Positions 35,883-49,458 are shown, counted from the stretch's first letter. The stretch: 64,000 bases of DNA from Brevundimonas sp. (GCF_965262535.1 NZ_OZ253542.1); one strand, 5' to 3'. Notes: generated from the letters alone by a model not told the origin. Made by a program: numbers and translations.

Positions 35883-36623
35883 TCAGAAGGCGGCTTTCAG
35901 CGTGGCAGCGGCGCGCGCGCCATAGCCCTTGCCGAAGCCGTGCTGGTCGGTGTCGTGATAGCGCACGTCCAGCGCCAGATTGCGGGTCAGCTGATAGGCC
36001 GTACCCAGGTTCCAGGTCGTATAGTCCAGGTCCGAAGACACCCACTGACGACCGACCGCGCCGGATATCGTCCACCTGTCGGCGGGGTGGACGGCGCCGT
36101 TGATCTCGGCATAGGTCGCCTGATCCTCGGCCGCGCCGAAGAAATCCGGCGAATAATAGACGGCGGCGCCCAGGGTTGCGGGACCGACGGCGCGCGAGGC
36201 CGCGGCCTTCAGCTCGACATAGTCATAGTCCGCGCCCTCGGGCTGGCCGGGGTAGAGATAGCCGACCACGCCGAAGTCCAGCGCATAGCCGGCGACCTCG
36301 GGCCGATAGCCGGCGTAGAGATCGACCTCGGCGTCCGTGCTGTCGCCGAAATCGACATTGGAGGCCCAGGCGCCGGCGTAGAATCCTTCGTTCGTCAAAT
36401 CGACGCCCGCTGATATCGCGGGCCTTTCCCGGGTTTGGCTGACGCCGCGGAAAACGTAGTCGGAGGTGACGGCGACGTTTGCCGACACGTCCTGCGCCCT
36501 GGCTTCGCTGCACAGGCCAAGGCCCGAAAGGCCCAGGATGCAGGCGGCGGCGAACCAGGCGTCGTTGCGGCCCGAGGCCTTGGAGAGGGGTTTACGCATG
36601 AGGATGTCCTTGGGAACGCGCAT
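35883..36623 (-). CDS. TorF-family (TIGR02001-like) putative outer-membrane porin
   Basis: Signal peptide; ANVAVTSDYVFRGVSQT, GAWASNV, EVDLYAGY; C-terminal Phe. Alternative ATG at 36599. Confidence 0.85.
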   Translation of the reverse strand: MRVPKDILMRKPLSKASGRNDAWFAAACILGLSGLGLCSEARAQDVSANVAVTSDYVFRGVSQTRERPAISAGVDLTNEGFYAGAWASNVDFGDSTDAEVDLYAGYRPEVAGYALDFGVVGYLYPGQPEGADYDYVELKAAASRAVGPATLGAAVYYSPDFFGAAEDQATYAEINGAVHPADRWTISGAVGRQWVSSDLDYTTWNLGTAYQLTRNLALDVRYHDTDQHGFGKGYGARAAATLKAAF

Positions 36624-40788: not shown

Positions 40789-41394
40789 TCAGCCGCCGTA
40801 GCCTCGGCCGCCGCCGCCGAAACCGCCGCGCGAGACAACGGTGGTGCGGCTCTGGACCCGCGTCGGGGCCTGGCGGGCGACGTCGCCATGCTCGCGCGCA
40901 TTGGTTAGAGTCTTTCCGGTGCGATAGTCGCGGTAGGCGTAGCCGCCGCCGTAGCCGTTCGACAGCCGACCCTCTCGGTCGCGATACAGCGGCCCGCCGC
41001 CGCGATAGCCGCCGCCGTTCAGCATCTGGCCGACGATGAAGCCCGTCAGCAGCGGGGTGAAGAAGGATCCGCCGTTGTTGTTCGGCCGGCATTGCGACGG
41101 TCCCCACTGGCCCTCGCACTCCTCACGGGTGGCGTAGCGAGGGGCGGTTTTGGCCGCTTCTTGCTGAGCCTTGGTCAGGGCGGCGTCGCATTCGTTGTCG
41201 GGAATGTCGTTGGCGGCCTTGCATTCGTCCAGCGACTGGTAGGCCAGGGTCGGTTCAGGCTCGGGCGCCGGGACCCGCTGGGGCGAGCCGCAGGCGGCCA
41301 GCGAGAAGCTGGCGGTCGCCATCAGGCTGCTGACGTGCAGGACGCGCGACCGCTTCAGCCGGCGCATGGTGTCGGTCTTGGGAAGATCGGTCAT
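40789..41394 (-). CDS. DUF1190 (YgiB/YjfM-like) lipoprotein
   Basis: Basic n-region and lipobox LAAC; YQSLDECK...C, PRYATREECEGQWG..C, FFTPLLTGFIVG; Gly-rich tail. Confidence 0.85.
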   Translation of the reverse strand: MTDLPKTDTMRRLKRSRVLHVSSLMATASFSLAACGSPQRVPAPEPEPTLAYQSLDECKAANDIPDNECDAALTKAQQEAAKTAPRYATREECEGQWGPSQCRPNNNGGSFFTPLLTGFIVGQMLNGGGYRGGGPLYRDREGRLSNGYGGGYAYRDYRTGKTLTNAREHGDVARQAPTRVQSRTTVVSRGGFGGGGRGYGG

Positions 41395-41398
41395 GGGT

Positions 41399-41812
41399 TC
41401 ACGACGTCATGCAGGCGGCGTTGAGCAAGCCGACGCAGATGGAGATGGAGGCCAGATAGACGGCCGCGGCGATCTCGCCCGCCTCGATGCGAACGACCAG
41501 ATTGCGGAAGGCCATGCGGCTGATGGTGACGAACACCACGATCTGGATCACGCCAGCCAGCAAGGCCCAGGCGGCGAATTCCATCAGGCTGACGGTGTGC
41601 GACAGGGCCGAGGCCAGCGGCAGGACATAGCCGATCAGGGCGCCGCCCAGCGCGATGGCGGCGGCCGTGTTGCCTTCCCGGATCAGCGTATGTTCGTGAT
41701 AGGGCGTGACCCACTGGTAGATCAGTTTGAAGGCCAGGGTGAAGGCGCCGGCCATGGCGAAGGCGATCAGGAAGGCGATCGCCCCCTGCTGAAAAATGAA
41801 CCAGTCGAACAT
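41399..41812 (-). CDS. DUF350 (YjfL-like) membrane protein
   Basis: IYQWVTPYHEHTLIREGNTAAAIALGGALIGYVLPLASA; ends GLLNAACMT. Confidence 0.9.
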   Translation of the reverse strand: MFDWFIFQQGAIAFLIAFAMAGAFTLAFKLIYQWVTPYHEHTLIREGNTAAAIALGGALIGYVLPLASALSHTVSLMEFAAWALLAGVIQIVVFVTISRMAFRNLVVRIEAGEIAAAVYLASISICVGLLNAACMTS

Positions 41813-41838
41813 CGGTCTTGCCCCCTCGGATTGCGCGC

Positions 41839-42486
41839 TCAGGCGCGGAACTCGGCCATTTCCAGCGGAATGCCGATCATGATCTCGTGCGTGGTGTCGC
41901 CGCCGTCGGGCTGCTGCTCAAGCGCCAGCATCAGTTCGCGCCCGCCGCCCAGTTCCCGCGCATACAGCATGCAGGTCTGGAAAATCCTGGCATAGGGCGT
42001 GGTCGCGGCGCGGTCGTCCCAGATCGTCTCCCACAGGGTGACGGGCGGCTGGATGGCGTCGCTTTCGGCGAACCAGAAGCGGGGATAGTCGGGCAACTCC
42101 TCGGCCGCGCCGTGAAACACCGGCGCCGACAGGCGGTCGCGCCAGATGCGGCGTTCGCGCTCGCCTGGCGGATAGGCCGAGGTCCAGGGGATGAACAGGC
42201 TGAAATCATAGCTTTCCAACCCCGCCTCGTCGTCGCTCATGGCCTGAAGCATGACGTGGTCGTCGGTATAGAAGCGATGAACGAACTGACCGCTGTCCAG
42301 ACTGACCAACCCTTGCGCCGAGATGTCCAGCACGTCGCGATCCAGGCTGAACTGCGTCTCCGACCCCAGCCGACGCCAGGCCAGCGGGTCCAGCGACACG
42401 GTGCGCCCCACGGTGATGTTTCGCACCGTCGCCAGCCGATTGGCGGGTGCCGCCTTTTCCGCCGATCCGAAAAGCTTCTTGAACAT
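41839..42486 (-). CDS. DUF2491 (YjfK-like) protein
   Basis: MFKKLFG..., HRFYTDDHVMLQ, QTCMLYAREL, IGIPL. Confidence 0.8.
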   Translation of the reverse strand: MFKKLFGSAEKAAPANRLATVRNITVGRTVSLDPLAWRRLGSETQFSLDRDVLDISAQGLVSLDSGQFVHRFYTDDHVMLQAMSDDEAGLESYDFSLFIPWTSAYPPGERERRIWRDRLSAPVFHGAAEELPDYPRFWFAESDAIQPPVTLWETIWDDRAATTPYARIFQTCMLYARELGGGRELMLALEQQPDGGDTTHEIMIGIPLEMAEFRA

Positions 42487-42597
42487 GGGCGACTATCTAG
42501 GCCCGATCCACGCCGACGGCGAGCGGACAGCGACGATGCAACCGAATGAGGCGGTTCATGCCGCGACAATCCGTCCGATCTTGCGTCAAGTCAAGCG

Positions 42598-42622
42598 TTC
42601 ATGTTACGTGTTTCATGTCACG
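42598..42622 (+). promoter_or_regulatory. Direct repeat TTCATGT(T/C)ACG x2 immediately upstream of the yjfI-like start
   Basis: Copies at 42598-42608 and 42612-42622; partial TTCATG at 42555. Lies in the divergent spacer. Confidence 0.45.
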
Positions 42623-42624
42623 CC

Positions 42625-43305
42625 ATGCCGAACGACACATCGCCCTCCTCCGCCGCCAACGATCGCATTCGTGCGTGGCGACAGGCGCGTCGCGAGGCGG
42701 GCCTGGTCAAGCTGGAGCTTTGGGTGCCTGCTTCCGCTCGTGACGACGTAAAGGCGGCCGTCCGCGCCATCGTCACAGATTCCACCCGCGGACCCGCCCT
42801 TGCCGGCCGGCCGCGCCGCCCCACTTCCGATTCCATCACCTCTGGAGACGACCATCATATGGACGCCGTGATCGAGACCCCTTGGACCGTGCCCGCCATC
42901 AAGGCGGCGCTGGACGGCTCCGCCCTGCTGCGTGACGGCGAAATGACCCTGCGCGTGGTCGAGGGCGCCGAGCCCGTTCTGCTGGCGACCATGCATGAAT
43001 ACGGCGACCTGCCGGTCTATCTCAGCGTCGGCGGGGCGCAGATCGTCTGTTCGGTGCTTCTGTGGCCCGTGTCGGAACAGGCCGACCGCCACGCCTTCAA
43101 CGAGTTCCTTTTGAAGGCCCAGCGCGTGGTGCCCTTGTCCAACTTCGCCATCACCAACGTCGGCGGCGAGGATGTGTACGAATTGATGGGCGAACTCTCT
43201 TGCAAGACGACGCTTCAGACCATCCTGATCGAACTGCGCACACTGGCCGAGAATGCGATCGACGCCACCGAACTGCGTGAAACCTTCGGCGCCGACGCCG
43301 CCTGA
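42625..43305 (+). CDS. DUF2170 (YjfI-like) protein with N-terminal putative DNA-binding extension
   Basis: C-terminal FNEFLLKAQRVVPLSNFAI...YELMGELS...ELRTLAENAIDA matches YjfI; N-terminal RIRAWRQARREAGLVKLELWVP. Confidence 0.82.
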   Translation: MPNDTSPSSAANDRIRAWRQARREAGLVKLELWVPASARDDVKAAVRAIVTDSTRGPALAGRPRRPTSDSITSGDDHHMDAVIETPWTVPAIKAALDGSALLRDGEMTLRVVEGAEPVLLATMHEYGDLPVYLSVGGAQIVCSVLLWPVSEQADRHAFNEFLLKAQRVVPLSNFAITNVGGEDVYELMGELSCKTTLQTILIELRTLAENAIDATELRETFGADAA

Positions 43306-43321
43306 TCCCGGAAGACCGACC

Positions 43322-44062
43322 ATGTCCATGCTCAGAAAACTGTCCGCCCTGTTTCGCGGCTCGGCCCATGACGCGGCTCAGGGCGTCGTCGACGCCAACG
43401 CGCTGAAGATTCTCGACCAGGAAATCCGCGACGCCGACAATGCTCAAGGCAAGGCGCGCGACGACCTGGCCGGCCTGGTGGCGCGCCGCCGGATGGCCGA
43501 GAACGAACTTGCATCTTTCAGGGACCAGATCGCGAAGTACGAAAGCTCGGCCCGCACCGCCCTGAGTCAGGGCAAGACCGACCTGGCGCGCGAAGTCGCC
43601 GGCCGCATCGCCGAGCTGGAAGTCGAGATCAACAGCCGTGGTCCGCTGATCGAGGATATGAAGACGGCCGAGACGCGCCTGCGCACCGCCATCGCCTCGA
43701 CCGACCAGAAGATCGAGACGCTTCGTCGCGAGATCGACATCGTCAAGGTCAACGATTCCGTCCAGCGCGCTCAGACCTCCGTCGCCCTGAACTCGGCCGG
43801 CGCCCAGTCGCGCATCGGCTCGGCCGCCGACAGCCTGCAGCGCATCAAACAGCGCCAGGCGATCCAGGAAGAGAAGCTGAACGCCAGCCAGGCGCTGGAA
43901 GACCGTCGCACCGGCGCGGACCTGGACGCCAAGCTGCGAGAGGCCGGCATCCTGCCCGGCCATTCGTCGGCCGACGACGTCCTGGCCCGCTTGAGCCAGC
44001 CGGAGGTGACGGTGGTCACGCCGCGCATCGGCCAATCCACGCCTGACAAAGACCCGGCCTGA
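43322..44062 (+). CDS. PspA/IM30 family protein (YjfJ-like)
   Basis: LKILDQEIRDA, coiled-coil, A...G..DLAREVA, SLQRIKQRQ, DDVLARL. Confidence 0.9.
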   Translation: MSMLRKLSALFRGSAHDAAQGVVDANALKILDQEIRDADNAQGKARDDLAGLVARRRMAENELASFRDQIAKYESSARTALSQGKTDLAREVAGRIAELEVEINSRGPLIEDMKTAETRLRTAIASTDQKIETLRREIDIVKVNDSVQRAQTSVALNSAGAQSRIGSAADSLQRIKQRQAIQEEKLNASQALEDRRTGADLDAKLREAGILPGHSSADDVLARLSQPEVTVVTPRIGQSTPDKDPA

Positions 44063-44065
44063 TCC

Positions 44066-45232
44066 ATGGAGCGTCTGCGCCTCGATCCCCGCACCGACTG
44101 GGACGCCAAGGCCGAGGAACTCGGCTTCACCTGGCGCCACACCGACGGCAAAACCTATTGGGACGAGACGGCGGCCTACGCCTTCTCCCTGGCCGAGATC
44201 GAGGACGGGATCGAGGCGCCGACCGAGGAACTGCACGGCCTGTGCCTGGAACTGGTCGACGAGGCCGTTCAGTCCGAGCGACTGATGGAGCAGCTCGATA
44301 TTCCCGAGGCCATGCGGGACTATGTGGCCGACAGCTGGAAGCGGGGCGATCCGTCCCTCTATGGCCGGTTCGACTTCGCCTATGACGGCACTGGTCCGGC
44401 CAAGCTGTATGAATACAACGCCGACACCCCGACCAGCATCTATGAGACGGCGGTGTTCCAGTGGTTGTGGCTGGAGGACCAGATCAAGGCCGGCGCCCTG
44501 CCCGCCGATGCGGATCAGTTCAACAGCCTGCACGAGAAGCTGGTCGACCGGTTCCGCGCCATCTTCCCGAACGGCGGCTTCGTGCATTTCGCCTCCGACG
44601 CCGATTTCGTCGAGGACCGCCAGACCGTGCGCTTCCTCGAAGACCTGGCCCAGCAGGCCGGGCTGGAGCCCCAGTTCGTCGCCATCGACCAGATCGGCCT
44701 GAACGCCGACGGCCGGTTCGTGGACCACGACAACTGGATCATCCAGGCGATGTTCAAACTGTATCCGTGGGAGCAGATGCTGCGCGACGAATACGCCGCG
44801 CCGCTGCCAACGGCGGACGTGACCGTGCTGGAACCGGCGTGGAAGAGCATCCTGTCCAACAAGGCCATACTGCCGCTGTTGTGGGAGCGGCATGCGGGCC
44901 ACCCCAACCTGCTGGAAAGCTATTTCGAGGGCGATCCGGCCGAGGCGGCGCTGGGCTCGTCCTATGTGCGTAAGCCCCTGTTCTCGCGCGAGGGCGACAA
45001 TGTCGAACTGATCGACCAGGGCCAAAGCGCCGCCGAGGTCGTTGACGGCGGCTATGGCGAAGGCCGCTACATCCGCCAGGCCCTGCACAATCCGCCGAAC
45101 TTCGACGGCAACCATGTGATCGTCGGGTCATGGGTGGTCGGAACCGAACCCGCCGGAATCAGTCTGCGCGAGGATATCGGCCGTATCACCCGCAACACCT
45201 CCCGCTTCGTGCCTCATTTTATCCGCCAGTGA
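44066..45232 (+). CDS. Glutathionylspermidine synthase-like ATP-grasp protein (YgiC/YjfC type, no amidase domain)
   Basis: YWDE, LYGRFDFAY, KLYEYNADTPTS, EPAWKSILSNKAILP, KPLFSREG, SRFVPH. Confidence 0.92.
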   Translation: MERLRLDPRTDWDAKAEELGFTWRHTDGKTYWDETAAYAFSLAEIEDGIEAPTEELHGLCLELVDEAVQSERLMEQLDIPEAMRDYVADSWKRGDPSLYGRFDFAYDGTGPAKLYEYNADTPTSIYETAVFQWLWLEDQIKAGALPADADQFNSLHEKLVDRFRAIFPNGGFVHFASDADFVEDRQTVRFLEDLAQQAGLEPQFVAIDQIGLNADGRFVDHDNWIIQAMFKLYPWEQMLRDEYAAPLPTADVTVLEPAWKSILSNKAILPLLWERHAGHPNLLESYFEGDPAEAALGSSYVRKPLFSREGDNVELIDQGQSAAEVVDGGYGEGRYIRQALHNPPNFDGNHVIVGSWVVGTEPAGISLREDIGRITRNTSRFVPHFIRQ

Positions 45233-45940: not shown

Positions 45941-47161
45941 TCAACGCCCGCGTCCCCCTTCGGGGCTGCGAGGCGACGAAACCGGGTTGGCCCTTGATCC
46001 GCCGGGGAAGGGTTTGACGACATAATCGTTGGCGAAGATGTTGGGGGCGAACGGATAGTCGGTCGAGATGATCTGGGCGCCGCTGGCCAGGGCCGCGTCG
46101 CGCCGCGTCACATCGTTCGTGCGCGCCTCGCCGGTGTCGATGTCGGAACGGGTGCGCACCAGATAGCCGCGTGAAACCAGGTCGCGGATTTCGTCGCCGT
46201 GCGTCAGCACGTTGTCGATCATGACGAAGGCGGCGTGGGGCATGCCGGGCCGCCCCTGAACGAAGGCCATTCGCCCCTCCAGGTTCGGATGGCCCTCCAT
46301 ATAGGGCGCGAATGTCGCCAGGTTCAGACCCGGCACTATCATCAGGAAGACGATCTTGCCGCGCGCCGCCTCCAGCGTGGGCCAGCCGCCATCAAGCGCA
46401 GCGGCTTCCAGCGTCGCATGATCGCCGCGCACGTCGTCGGGCGTGATGACCCGCTCGCGTCCTATGATCTCCGCGATGGAGGCGTCCATTTCGGCGAAGG
46501 CGCGGGCGTCGAACGGATCGAGCGGCGTGGCGTCCGGCGCGAAGGCGGCCAGGCTTTGGAACTTCGGCTCCAGCAGGATGAACACCGGCGAATGCCCGGG
46601 ATTGGCGTCCGACCAGGCCCGGACCTGTTGCAGACACAGCCGGAAGGTCGGGCAGTGGCTGCGGAAATCCACGTCCACGGCGTGCATGACCTTCAGCCCC
46701 GGCTGGGCCAGAGCCTGATCGTAAAGGGGGGCCAGATCCTTGGCGCCCTGTTCGCGCAGGATACGATAGGGCAGCGGATTGCTGAACCGCCCCCCCTCGT
46801 GGTCGACGTTCAGATCGAACTCCAGGCTGCGCAGACCCGCCCGCAGCTGCGCCTCGATCGGCGGATGGATATATTCCAGCCCGGACTGCAGATCCTCAAA
46901 GATCGCATTGGGGTGTTCGTCGCGCAGCACCGCCATCGCCTCGGCGGGCAGGCTGGAGAATATGCGGTCCAGCATGGGCTGAAGCATGGGCTTCATCACC
47001 GAAAAGACCCGAGGGTCCGCCGGCTGGCTGTAGCTGTTGTGCGTGCCGATCACCTGGATCTGGTTCAGGCGGGGCTGCGGCGTTTGCGCGGCGGCGGAGG
47101 CGGCGATGGCGATCGCCGCCAATGCGGCGGAGGCTGACAGAAGGGCTTTCATGACGCTCAT
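45941..47161 (-). CDS. Secreted Ca2+-dependent PI-PLC-like phosphodiesterase (SaPLC1-like)
   Basis: Signal peptide; LNQIQVIGTHNSY, LRSLEFD, HAVDVDFRSHC, GHSPVFILLEPK, GYLVRTRSD, GAQIISTDY. Confidence 0.82.
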   Translation of the reverse strand: MSVMKALLSASAALAAIAIAASAAAQTPQPRLNQIQVIGTHNSYSQPADPRVFSVMKPMLQPMLDRIFSSLPAEAMAVLRDEHPNAIFEDLQSGLEYIHPPIEAQLRAGLRSLEFDLNVDHEGGRFSNPLPYRILREQGAKDLAPLYDQALAQPGLKVMHAVDVDFRSHCPTFRLCLQQVRAWSDANPGHSPVFILLEPKFQSLAAFAPDATPLDPFDARAFAEMDASIAEIIGRERVITPDDVRGDHATLEAAALDGGWPTLEAARGKIVFLMIVPGLNLATFAPYMEGHPNLEGRMAFVQGRPGMPHAAFVMIDNVLTHGDEIRDLVSRGYLVRTRSDIDTGEARTNDVTRRDAALASGAQIISTDYPFAPNIFANDYVVKPFPGGSRANPVSSPRSPEGGRGR

Positions 47162-49458
47162 CCTTCGATACGGAAGCGCAGGCCGAAGAAGCGCGGATTG
47201 GCGCGGATCGCCGTCGGCACGCCGAAACTCTTGCCGCCGTTGCCCACATCGCGGACCCAGTCCTGATCGAACAGGTTCTCGCCATACAGTTCGATGCGCA
47301 GACCGTCCTGGCGCTCCAGGCCCAGGCGCAGATCGAACAGGCCGAACGCCTTCTGCATCTCCGTCTCGAGGTTGTCGTTGTTCATGTAGAACTTGGACCG
47401 CCAGGCGTAGTTGCCGTTGGCGAACACCTCCCAGCCGGACGCCACCGGCCGGCGCCAATCGGCGCCGATCGAGGCGGTGTGTTTCGGCGCCATTCTGAAG
47501 ACATTGCCCGAACGGTCGGTCAGCACCCCGCCGACGACTTCATAGAATTCGTCATACTGGCTGTGAAGATAGGCGTAGGCGGCCGTCAGCTTGAGGTCAG
47601 GCGAAACCCGCCAGGTCGTATTGGTCTCAAGCCCATAGGCCGAAGCCTTGCCCGCATTCACGGTGCCGACCGTGATGTCGATCGCGCGGGTCTGGAAGTC
47701 GTTGTAGTCGTAGGTGAAGGCGGCCGCCTCGAAATACAGGTTGCGGCCCAGATTGCCCTTGGCGCCGATCTCGTAGTTGACGATCTCTTCGGTCTTCAGT
47801 TCGTTGTAGATCGGCCGTGCAGACCCCGCGACCGGCGCCGCGAAGCTCACCTGCGGATACCCTGAACGCAGTCCGCGCGACACGCCGGCATAGGCGTTGA
47901 CCGCGTCCGTCACCCGCCACGTCACCGAGGCGCGCGGCTGGACCAGATTGTATTCGCCGGTGTTGGAGAACGCCTGCCCCAGGGAGTTGCCTAGGCCATT
48001 GGGCAGGGCGATGGGCGCAACGCCGTCGATCGTCGACACCCGGGCCGAGTTGCTGACCGTGGCCTGATCGTAGGTGTAGCGCAGGCCCACATCCAGGGTC
48101 AGTCGCGGCGCCAGATCATAGCTGACGTTGCCATAGGCGGACCAACTGTCGCGGTCATTGCGGGTGGAGTTGAGATTGGTCACGCCCTTCGTCACCGGCA
48201 GGAACACGCCCGGCGCCACCTGAAGCCGGGTGACGGGCGTGGTGGCTTTCGGGAAACCCGCCAGCAGCAGCTGTTCGTTCAAGGTCAGCTCGACCAGATT
48301 ATAGGTCTTGTCGTTGTAGTAGCTGACGCCGAAGGCCGTACGGAAGCGACCGCCGTCGTCGTAGTTCAGGCGCAGTTCCTGGCTGAGAATCTTCTGGTCG
48401 TCGGCCAGATTGCGGCCGATGGCGAACTCATAGGAAGTGCCGTCGATATCCCACGACTCCTCGAAGTCGACCTTACGCCAGGCGCTGATTGAGCGAAGGC
48501 TCCAGGCGTCGTTGACGTCCCACTGGCCGATCAGGGTCGCGCCGGTCTGGCTGCGATGCTGGGGCGGGTCGTAATAGTTCTGGGCCGCGTCGCTGAACGG
48601 ATTGGTGTCTCCGCCGGGCGAGGCGATATTGATCGCCTTGGTCATAGCCGCGGCGTCGGCGTCGGTCTGATGATCGATGATCAGATCGAAAAAGGCGTTC
48701 GGCGTCGCCAGCCAACGCAGCGAAGCCCGCGCGGCCCACAGGTCGTCGTCGTTCAACATCCGGCCATCGACGATGTTGCGGGCATAACCGTCACGCTCGC
48801 GACGGCGCACGGCGACACGCAGCCCCAGCTCGTCCTGCACGATCGGCACGTTCAGAACGCCCGTCACCCCATAGAGGTTGTAGTTGCCGAGCTGACCTTC
48901 CATCGACCAAGCCGTTTCCGATGGATCGGCGCGACGGGTATAGACGGCGATGGCGCCGGTCTGTGATCCACGGCCATACAGGGCGCCTTGCGGCCCCTTG
49001 GCGATCTCGACCCGCTCGATATCGAACAACTCCTTCAGCGCGCCGCGCGACCGGCTGGTGTCGACATCGTTCAGAAAGAACGAGATGCCCGGCTCCGACG
49101 CCGCGCCCGCACTGGCCGCCTCGACGCCGCGCATGACGAAACTGGCCGAACTGTCCGTCTGCTGCTGCACGAAGAAGCCCGGCGTCCGCAGGGACAGCCG
49201 CTCGAAATCGGTCAGATTCTCGCGATCCAGGGCCTCGGCGCCGAAGGCGACGATGGAGATGGGCACATCCTTCAAGCGCTGCTCGCGCTTTTGAGCCGTG
49301 ACGATCACCTCGTCGACGAGGCTCGCCTGTCCGGCGCCGACGTCTTGAGCGAACGCTTGTTCAGCCGCCAGACCGCTGACGCCGCACATGAGAAGAAGAC
49401 GGAACGCCGCCTGAGAAAACCGGAACGACACTGGAAAAACCCCCTGCTGGACAACCAC
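47158..49458 (-). CDS. TonB-dependent receptor
   Basis: EVIVTAQKREQ...VPISI, ERVEIAKGPQGALYGRGSQTGAI plug; beta-barrel. Start uncertain (GTG 49431 is an alternative). Confidence 0.92.
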   Translation of the reverse strand: MVVQQGVFPVSFRFSQAAFRLLLMCGVSGLAAEQAFAQDVGAGQASLVDEVIVTAQKREQRLKDVPISIVAFGAEALDRENLTDFERLSLRTPGFFVQQQTDSSASFVMRGVEAASAGAASEPGISFFLNDVDTSRSRGALKELFDIERVEIAKGPQGALYGRGSQTGAIAVYTRRADPSETAWSMEGQLGNYNLYGVTGVLNVPIVQDELGLRVAVRRRERDGYARNIVDGRMLNDDDLWAARASLRWLATPNAFFDLIIDHQTDADAAAMTKAINIASPGGDTNPFSDAAQNYYDPPQHRSQTGATLIGQWDVNDAWSLRSISAWRKVDFEESWDIDGTSYEFAIGRNLADDQKILSQELRLNYDDGGRFRTAFGVSYYNDKTYNLVELTLNEQLLLAGFPKATTPVTRLQVAPGVFLPVTKGVTNLNSTRNDRDSWSAYGNVSYDLAPRLTLDVGLRYTYDQATVSNSARVSTIDGVAPIALPNGLGNSLGQAFSNTGEYNLVQPRASVTWRVTDAVNAYAGVSRGLRSGYPQVSFAAPVAGSARPIYNELKTEEIVNYEIGAKGNLGRNLYFEAAAFTYDYNDFQTRAIDITVGTVNAGKASAYGLETNTTWRVSPDLKLTAAYAYLHSQYDEFYEVVGGVLTDRSGNVFRMAPKHTASIGADWRRPVASGWEVFANGNYAWRSKFYMNNDNLETEMQKAFGLFDLRLGLERQDGLRIELYGENLFDQDWVRDVGNGGKSFGVPTAIRANPRFFGLRFRIEG

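Follow-up and report, generated by a model that had tools for sequence, protein, structure and literature searches.

Among operons that combine a CesT/Tir-type protein with PspA, Ravi et al. (2024, mSystems, PMC11237479) defined a third group, with Escherichia coli yjfIJKLMC as an example, that contains a DUF2170-PspA pair, a GspS-related ATP-grasp ligase, a K+ channel, a DUF350 protein, a DUF1190 lipoprotein and a DUF2491 protein. The same authors proposed that PspA membrane dynamics are tied to polyamine chemistry (PMC11237479). E. coli yjfIJKL form one co-varying expression module; in strains evolved under heat, a promoter mutation activated it (PMC12492005). The BacA-BacB pair of Pseudomonas aeruginosa (PA3732-PA3731) likewise consists of a DUF2170 protein followed by PspA, and BacA acts negatively on its own operon, as a bacA mutant over-accumulates the downstream operon proteins (PMC10948618). 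This module of PspA and a polyamine ligase is widespread and its mechanism is unsolved; in E. coli it is associated with heat tolerance, and in P. aeruginosa with virulence and biofilm traits. Here we analyze a six-gene cluster of the yjf families in a 64,000-nucleotide stretch of Brevundimonas sp. DNA (GCF_965262535.1, NZ_OZ253542.1), referred to as the window, in which the genes are divided between two divergent arms (Table 1).

An earlier note, made from the sequence of the window, had named six families, a 138-bp spacer shared by the two arms and an equivalence to yjfIJKLMC. Open reading frame listing and Pfam profile searches, in which all six proteins exceed the gathering scores of their families, confirm these assignments, and the same six families are found in E. 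coli K-12, where they lie co-directionally in one block (yjfI-J-K-L-M-C). The spacer length holds with the ATG at 42625 as the DUF2170 start. This start is supported because the in-frame ATG upstream of it (42601) is part of a conserved non-coding block, and reading from it meets a TGA in most relatives. The gaps within the arms are 4, 26, 16 and 3 nt, the 16 nt lying between DUF2170 and PspA on the same strand and the 3 nt between the PspA stop and the ligase start. PspA is 36% identical to E. coli YjfJ and the DUF350 protein is 38% identical to YjfL. A hydropathy scan revealed four hydrophobic segments in DUF350 and none in DUF2491, PspA or the ligase, and the one above-threshold segment of the DUF2170 protein (residues 129-147) falls within its soluble domain. 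The AlphaFold model of DUF2491, built from a shallow Brevundimonas alignment, has a mean predicted local distance difference test score (pLDDT) of only 37.8.

Measured against the third group of Ravi et al., the cluster has the adjacent DUF2170 and YjfJ-type PspA genes, the ATP-grasp ligase, the four-transmembrane DUF350 protein, the DUF1190 lipoprotein and DUF2491; what it lacks is the K+ channel and the single co-directional operon, two divergent arms standing in its place. DUF2170 and PspA are adjacent in E. coli as well, but there the six genes form one operon rather than two, the ligase gene follows DUF1190 rather than PspA, and YjfI (133 aa) is without the N-terminal extension that is added to the window DUF2170 protein. 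The channel is missing from both the window copy and E. coli K-12, unlike the class description, and the module, which the earlier note called complete, is so relative to E. coli and not relative to the wider seven-gene form. We consider it probable that the cluster is the Caulobacteraceae form of this known envelope module, with the mechanism as proposed. The same note had put it forward as an under-described system, yet its operon class has already been defined (PMC11237479): the locus brings no new kind of system, and its newness is limited to a rewiring of gene order, a channel dimorphism and a putative regulator fusion. No relevant Caulobacter-specific functional data on the cluster turned up in a literature search. 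Family identity aside, we infer every mechanistic statement made below.

Gene order, linkage and the K+ channel position

A scan with the DUF2491 protein yielded 80 Brevundimonas/Caulobacterales loci at 74-97% identity (76 complete, 4 cut by contig ends), those of B. huaxiensis and B. vesicularis being nearest to the window. For a wider survey, 20 kb were fetched around each DUF2491 match and the six cluster proteins were mapped onto each. We categorize the gene orders into three layouts. Layout A, of non-alphaproteobacterial lineages, is co-directional (DUF2170-PspA-K+ channel-DUF2491-DUF350-DUF1190-ligase), and E. coli has the same order minus the channel. Layout B, of one alphaproteobacterial family, places ligase-DUF1190-DUF350-DUF2491-channel opposite DUF2170-PspA. 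Layout C, that of the window, places DUF1190-DUF350-DUF2491-(channel) opposite DUF2170-PspA-ligase and is shared by three genera of Caulobacteraceae and two genomes that belong to other alphaproteobacterial families. The order and orientation of the six genes in the window are kept in all 76 complete Brevundimonas/Caulobacterales loci. As layout C is standard across the lineage, its divergent arrangement is old: the two-arm layout is ancestral for the Caulobacteraceae lineage and is not the product of a recent inversion, whereas the earlier note had taken it to be the result of an inversion. The cluster has an accessory distribution, DUF2491 being found in 7 of the 201 alphaproteobacterial genomes sampled and in 18 of 401 Pseudomonadota, and it is missing from several Brevundimonas genomes and from all seven sampled genomes of other Caulobacterales families.

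Layout C differs from the others in the position of the ligase gene. Elsewhere DUF1190 is its almost constant neighbor (yjfMC, ygiBC, layouts A and B), and in layout C the two are separated. A ligase tree resolves the enzymes of Caulobacteraceae and those of the layout-B Alphaproteobacteria as sister groups (Shimodaira-Hasegawa-like approximate likelihood ratio test, SH-aLRT, 89), indicating that the gene moved inside the cluster and was not replaced by a foreign paralogue. Layout C is a natural arrangement that couples the ligase to PspA instead of DUF1190, and it provides an experimental handle on this coupling.

The six genes are inherited jointly as one block. Between the window and nearly all of the 80 loci, nucleotide homology is limited to 40789 to ~45233, which are the positions of the DUF1190 and ligase stop codons, and by similarity the 4-kb flanks sort into 29 groups on one side and 31 on the other. 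Such sharp borders amid variable flanks favor the idea that the six genes are maintained as a single unit, and together with the intact clusters in 76/76 loci they substantiate the claim that the six partners have stayed together. The association of the six families is not due to chance.

The spacer between DUF2491 and DUF2170 falls into two length classes, one of ~75-155 bp (50/80 loci, including the window) and one of ~940-1155 bp (30/80). The long class encodes a minus-strand K+ channel of ~347 aa that combines a GYGD-filter Ion_trans_2 pore with a TrkA_N/RCK-like domain. This gene is intact in 27 of the 30 long-class loci (the presence/absence contrast was noted at loci that include L002, L007, L009 and L015-L018), and one locus, L076, has a shortened 277-aa version. 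The channel is also found in most other lineages sampled. Where present, it opens the minus arm, with only ~75 bp between its start and the DUF2170 start. In the window, 98 bp stand where relatives have 1090 bp, the neighboring sequence is ~92% identical, and blastn against four relatives (L007, L002, L018, L015) places the homology breaks at 42489/42588. No channel homologue was found in the window or elsewhere in the genome, which is complete as a single 3.47-Mb contig. The ancestral minus arm began with a K+ channel gene, and the window carries a channel-less allele. As E. coli K-12 is also without the channel, the gene is optional for the class. The 98-bp filler was considered as a scar of the channel gene and rejected in that role: blastn found no homology and global alignment gave only fragmented chance matches, and a simple internal deletion is not claimed.

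Mapped onto a tree built from the six proteins concatenated, the presence of the channel requires 19 changes, at least 14 of them forced by well-supported branches, and it differs even between strains whose cluster proteins are ~97% identical. So many changes indicate that the channel has been repeatedly lost or exchanged by recombination. The near-identical clusters with and without a channel inside one genus are ready natural comparisons.

Alternative accounts of how the cluster came to be arranged fare poorly against this record. A recent inversion, in this genome or its lineage, that split a yjfIJKLMC-type operon could be imagined from the co-directional order of E. coli and several other non-alphaproteobacterial Pseudomonadota, but it is exceedingly improbable: the divergent layout is fixed in all related loci and shared with other Caulobacteraceae genera and alphaproteobacterial families, a third layout (B) exists in another alphaproteobacterial family, and M-L-K / I-J-C cannot be obtained by one inversion of I-J-K-L-M-C, because the ligase has also shifted from after DUF1190 to after PspA. 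We also weighed whether the arms are two independent modules that happen to be neighbors, a cytoplasmic PspA-chaperone-ligase unit and a membrane trio without joint function. Their separate transcription in the window would fit, as would the restriction of co-varying expression to yjfIJKL in E. coli (PMC12492005) and the occurrence of DUF1190-ligase pairs alone, for example ygiBC. However, the six families remain linked over three gene orders and across classes, the homology borders fall at the outer ends of the six genes, and the Brevundimonas split K-L-M / I-J-C does not respect the I-J-K-L expression grouping of E. coli, which speaks against sub-modules being fixed. We regard independent modules as quite unlikely.

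Two further accounts concern what the cluster does. Polyamines and K+ are the main cytoplasmic cations, and the cluster could be primarily a device for their homeostasis, in which the ligase would act as a buffer of free polyamine and K+ would be handled by the channel or Kdp. The ancestral seventh gene is indeed a K+ channel with an RCK-type domain, and kdpFABC lies directly beside the cluster in the window, on the DUF1190 side. This account is nevertheless unlikely, as the channel is dispensable (absent from 50/80 loci including the window, with the many presence/absence changes described above) and has no homologue elsewhere in the genome, and kdp adjacency recurs in just 3 of the 80 related loci (L013, L015, L019), few enough that it appears incidental. 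An anti-phage defense or abortive-infection system built around a 'phage shock' protein is far less probable still: the family name and the patchy accessory distribution are the only points in its favor, whereas PADLOC gave no match for any of the six cluster proteins, which also contain no nuclease, NTPase-sensor or toxin domains, and the GC content of the cluster is that of its flanks.

Proposed regulation and ligase substrate of the module

We return to the reading of the cluster as a Caulobacteraceae yjf-type envelope module. Its PspA is encoded by the sole PspA-family gene in the genome (one genome-wide hidden Markov model match), and searches of the complete genome for PspB and PspC gave no PF06667 or PF04024 match. 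The cluster thus represents the organism's whole PspA system. It resembles the classical Psp system (pspF-pspABCDE) in its PspA-family effector and in a divergent regulatory arrangement in which a PspA partner may control transcription. It differs in that PspB and PspC are missing from the window genome, in that no convincing sigma-54 promoter motif was found in the spacer, and in that the putative regulator is a small MazE/ribbon-helix-helix (RHH)-like-CesT fusion where the classical regulator is an AAA+ enhancer-binding protein. The bac operon of P. aeruginosa is a single sigma-54-dependent unit and differs from the two arms of the window in the same respect. Simple consensus searches of the spacer gave no convincing promoter of the sigma-70, sigma-54 or Caulobacter (sigma-73-type) kind; the best sigma-54 consensus match is 7/12, and no search aimed at PspF was made.

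The N-terminal extension of the DUF2170 protein comprises ~75 residues, in which a basic helix is followed by a G-x-VK-x-E-x-W-x-P strand motif that is invariant among homologues down to 22% identity. The NCBIfam BacA model (NF050185) covers nearly the full length of the protein including the extension (positions 10-201 of 206 aligned) at 152.8 bits, below its equivalog cut-off of 300, and PDB 8q8o matches residues 87-217 only (E 4e-28), corresponding to the DUF2170 domain. The BacA domain in this structure has a CesT-like dimeric fold (PMC10948618; PDB 8q8o); the crystal contains 139 residues from a construct that does not include the N-terminus, and the paper makes no mention of DNA binding (PMC10948618). 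When nine diverse N-terminal segments were searched, four matched PF11455 (MazE-like antitoxin) and no other family, the best with an E of 4e-4. A downstream in-frame ATG (42859) is located just ahead of the DUF2170 domain, and a start there could yield a chaperone-only product.

Alignments of the 80 spacers contain only one strongly conserved non-coding element, a 32-nt block that reads GTCAAGCGTTCATGTTACGTGTTTCATGTCAC in the window (genus consensus GTCAAGcGTTCaTGTTACGCGTTaCATGaAAC) and ends three bases before the DUF2170 start codon. In most strains the block is a near-palindrome, TTCATGTTACGCGTTACATGAA. Palindromes are present at the same position in other lineages whose DUF2170 protein has the extension, namely ACATACGCGTATGT, a duplicated TTACATGTAA and two copies of TCTCACGCGTGAGA. 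The length of perfect palindromes upstream of DUF2170 was tried as a statistic and set aside as non-discriminating, so that our reading of the block rests on its sequence conservation.

We propose that the N-terminal MazE/RHH-like domain of the DUF2170 protein would bind the 32-nt block at its own start codon, making the protein an autorepressor that probably represses the divergent arm too. In the ancestral channel-bearing form, the block would lie within a ~75-bp divergent control region serving both arms. The DUF2170 domain would bind PspA as a chaperone, and the capture of PspA by a stressed membrane would change repression, a partner switch that would replace PspF and sigma-54. PspA itself would be the effector, an ESCRT-III-like polymer that stabilizes the damaged inner membrane, and the envelope-facing part would be formed by the trio of the four-transmembrane DUF350, the Cys-rich lipoprotein DUF1190 and the soluble DUF2491.

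The best PDB matches of the ligase are YjfC (7uk6, E 1.5e-120) and YgiC (7uk8, E 3.3e-116), both end-to-end, and it is 48% identical to each of these enzymes over 386 residues. It shares the ATP-grasp synthetase fold and the pre-ATP-grasp domain with GspSA and trypanothione synthetase (E about 1e-34 to 1e-37). Its 388 residues, however, align to GspSA residues ~258-619 only, the synthetase half, without the N-terminal CHAP amidase domain, and its nearest relatives YjfC and YgiC ligate peptides to spermidine rather than producing glutathionylspermidine. RefSeq names both E. coli enzymes peptide-spermidine ligases, and they are reported as such, with natural substrates unknown, in the passages of PMC11762307 and PMC12568646 that cite Pederick et al. 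(2023). The earlier note had described YgiC and YjfC as hydrolyzing ATP without making glutathionylspermidine, which is true but outdated in view of the published ligase activity, as given in the passage of PMC11762307.

The DUF1190 protein has the lipobox LAAC (Cys35), four further cysteines conserved in the family alignment, a conserved hydrophobic segment (GSFFTPLLTGFIVGQML) and a basic Gly/Arg/Tyr tail with an RGGFG motif, ending in ...YGG. DUF1190 proteins of all lineages, including E. coli YjfM and YgiB, have a GSFFxPxxxGxxxG hydrophobic segment (residues ~107-125 of the window protein) ahead of an arginine-rich tail. A C-terminal Gly-Gly is present in 77 of 79 Brevundimonas loci (YGG, 73; FGG, 4), and in other lineages the protein usually ends aromatic-Gly-Gly, again including YjfM and YgiB. 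This tail is kept even in clusters whose DUF1190 and ligase genes have been separated. If the hydrophobic segment, which is only marginally hydrophobic, spans the membrane, the Gly-Gly C-terminus would face the cytoplasm, where the ligase is. We suggest that the ligase would amidate a C-terminal carboxylate with a triamine and that its best candidate substrate is the aromatic-Gly-Gly end of DUF1190, candidate substrate peptides from this tail ending ...SRGGFGGGGRGYGG. As to the supply of triamine, no SpeE-type spermidine synthase was found in the genome. A carboxy(nor)spermidine-synthase-like gene is present (G000:C1:1424872-1425273, L113; 431 bits, below the equivalog cut-off) and makes a triamine substrate plausible, and triamines are probably made via the alternative carboxyaminopropyl route.

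The combined scheme, in which the DUF2170 protein would be a two-part switch that represses both arms through its N-terminus and holds PspA through its CesT-like domain, and in which the ligase, co-translated with PspA, would amidate the DUF1190 ...YGG-COOH end with a triamine, is a tentative one that we consider possible but doubtful. Several observations weigh against the proposed mechanism of the module. The PF11455 matches of the N-terminal domain are sub-threshold (16-17 bits against a gathering cut-off of 22), a profile of this domain gave nothing meaningful against PDB sequences, and AlphaFold models DUF2170 residues 1-85 as helix-gap-helix with pLDDT <50, the DUF2170 domain being moderately confident. 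The block in the window consists of two direct TTCATGT(T/C)ACG repeats rather than the majority palindrome, palindrome arms of at least 5 arise by chance in 44% of 100-nt windows, and in the channel-less allele the block is ~100 bp from the DUF2491 start, making control of the minus arm less certain. On the ligase side, DUF1190 ends GS, SAS or SSS in some lineages, and the two genes are not adjacent in layout C. DUF1190 is a predicted exported lipoprotein and the ligase is cytoplasmic, so that modification of the tail would have to precede export unless the tail is located in the cytoplasm, and the segment that might cross the membrane is short and, in E. coli YgiB, has only weak hydrophobicity.

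If the scheme holds, it would describe a sigma-54-independent partner-switch circuit for a PspA system and would account for the unexplained negative control exerted by P. aeruginosa BacA. Triamine amidation of the DUF1190 end would likewise, if true, be a new C-terminal modification of bacterial proteins. The putative DNA-binding chaperone fusion beside a conserved candidate operator offers a concrete regulatory model for a PspA system without PspB and PspC.

Features and neighboring genes

Table 1. Positions of the cluster genes and intergenic elements in the window, with the evidence for each.
Feature	Position	Strand	Evidence
DUF1190 (YjfM/YgiB-like) lipoprotein	40789-41394	-	Pfam PF06693, E 1.3e-36
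DUF350 (YjfL-like) inner-membrane protein	41399-41812	-	Pfam PF03994, E 2.8e-36
DUF2491 (YjfK-like) soluble protein, opening the minus arm in the window allele	41839-42486	-	Pfam PF10679, E 1.1e-52, full-length
Divergent spacer, 138 bp	42487-42624	no strand	Between DUF2491 and DUF2170 starts
98-bp filler at the K+ channel site	42490-42587	no strand	blastn breakpoints against channel-bearing loci
Conserved 32-nt block, candidate operator and core promoter	42590-42621	+	Alignments of 80 spacers
DUF2170 (YjfI/BacA-like, CesT/Tir-type chaperone fold) with N-terminal extension	42625-43305	+	Pfam PF09938, E 3.3e-47
PspA/IM30 (YjfJ-type)	43322-44062	+	Pfam PF04012, E 1.5e-47
GspS-type ATP-grasp ligase (YjfC/YgiC-like), without amidase domain	44066-45232	+	Pfam PF03738 GSP_synth, E 1.9e-149

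The kdp operon of the window includes a porin-like gene (35946-36498). At least nine other Brevundimonas loci without kdp homology (L030, L044, L047, L049, L051, L065, L067, L074, L079) have a homologue of this porin no more than 8 kb from the cluster, and the kdp genes may have arrived later, around a porin that was already there. On the other side of the cluster, nothing homologous to the right flank (45233 onward) at the nucleotide level lies within 8 kb of the cluster in any of the 75 related loci compared. This flank carries a PI-PLC-like gene (45941-47200) with a 39%-identical paralogue at G000:C1:3043699-3044709. The genome also encodes a second DUF350 protein at G000:C1:1148951-1149265 (L112:5736-6272), which stands alone without other yjf-type partners and has an rlmN-like radical-SAM gene and a trypsin-like peptidase gene as its neighbors.

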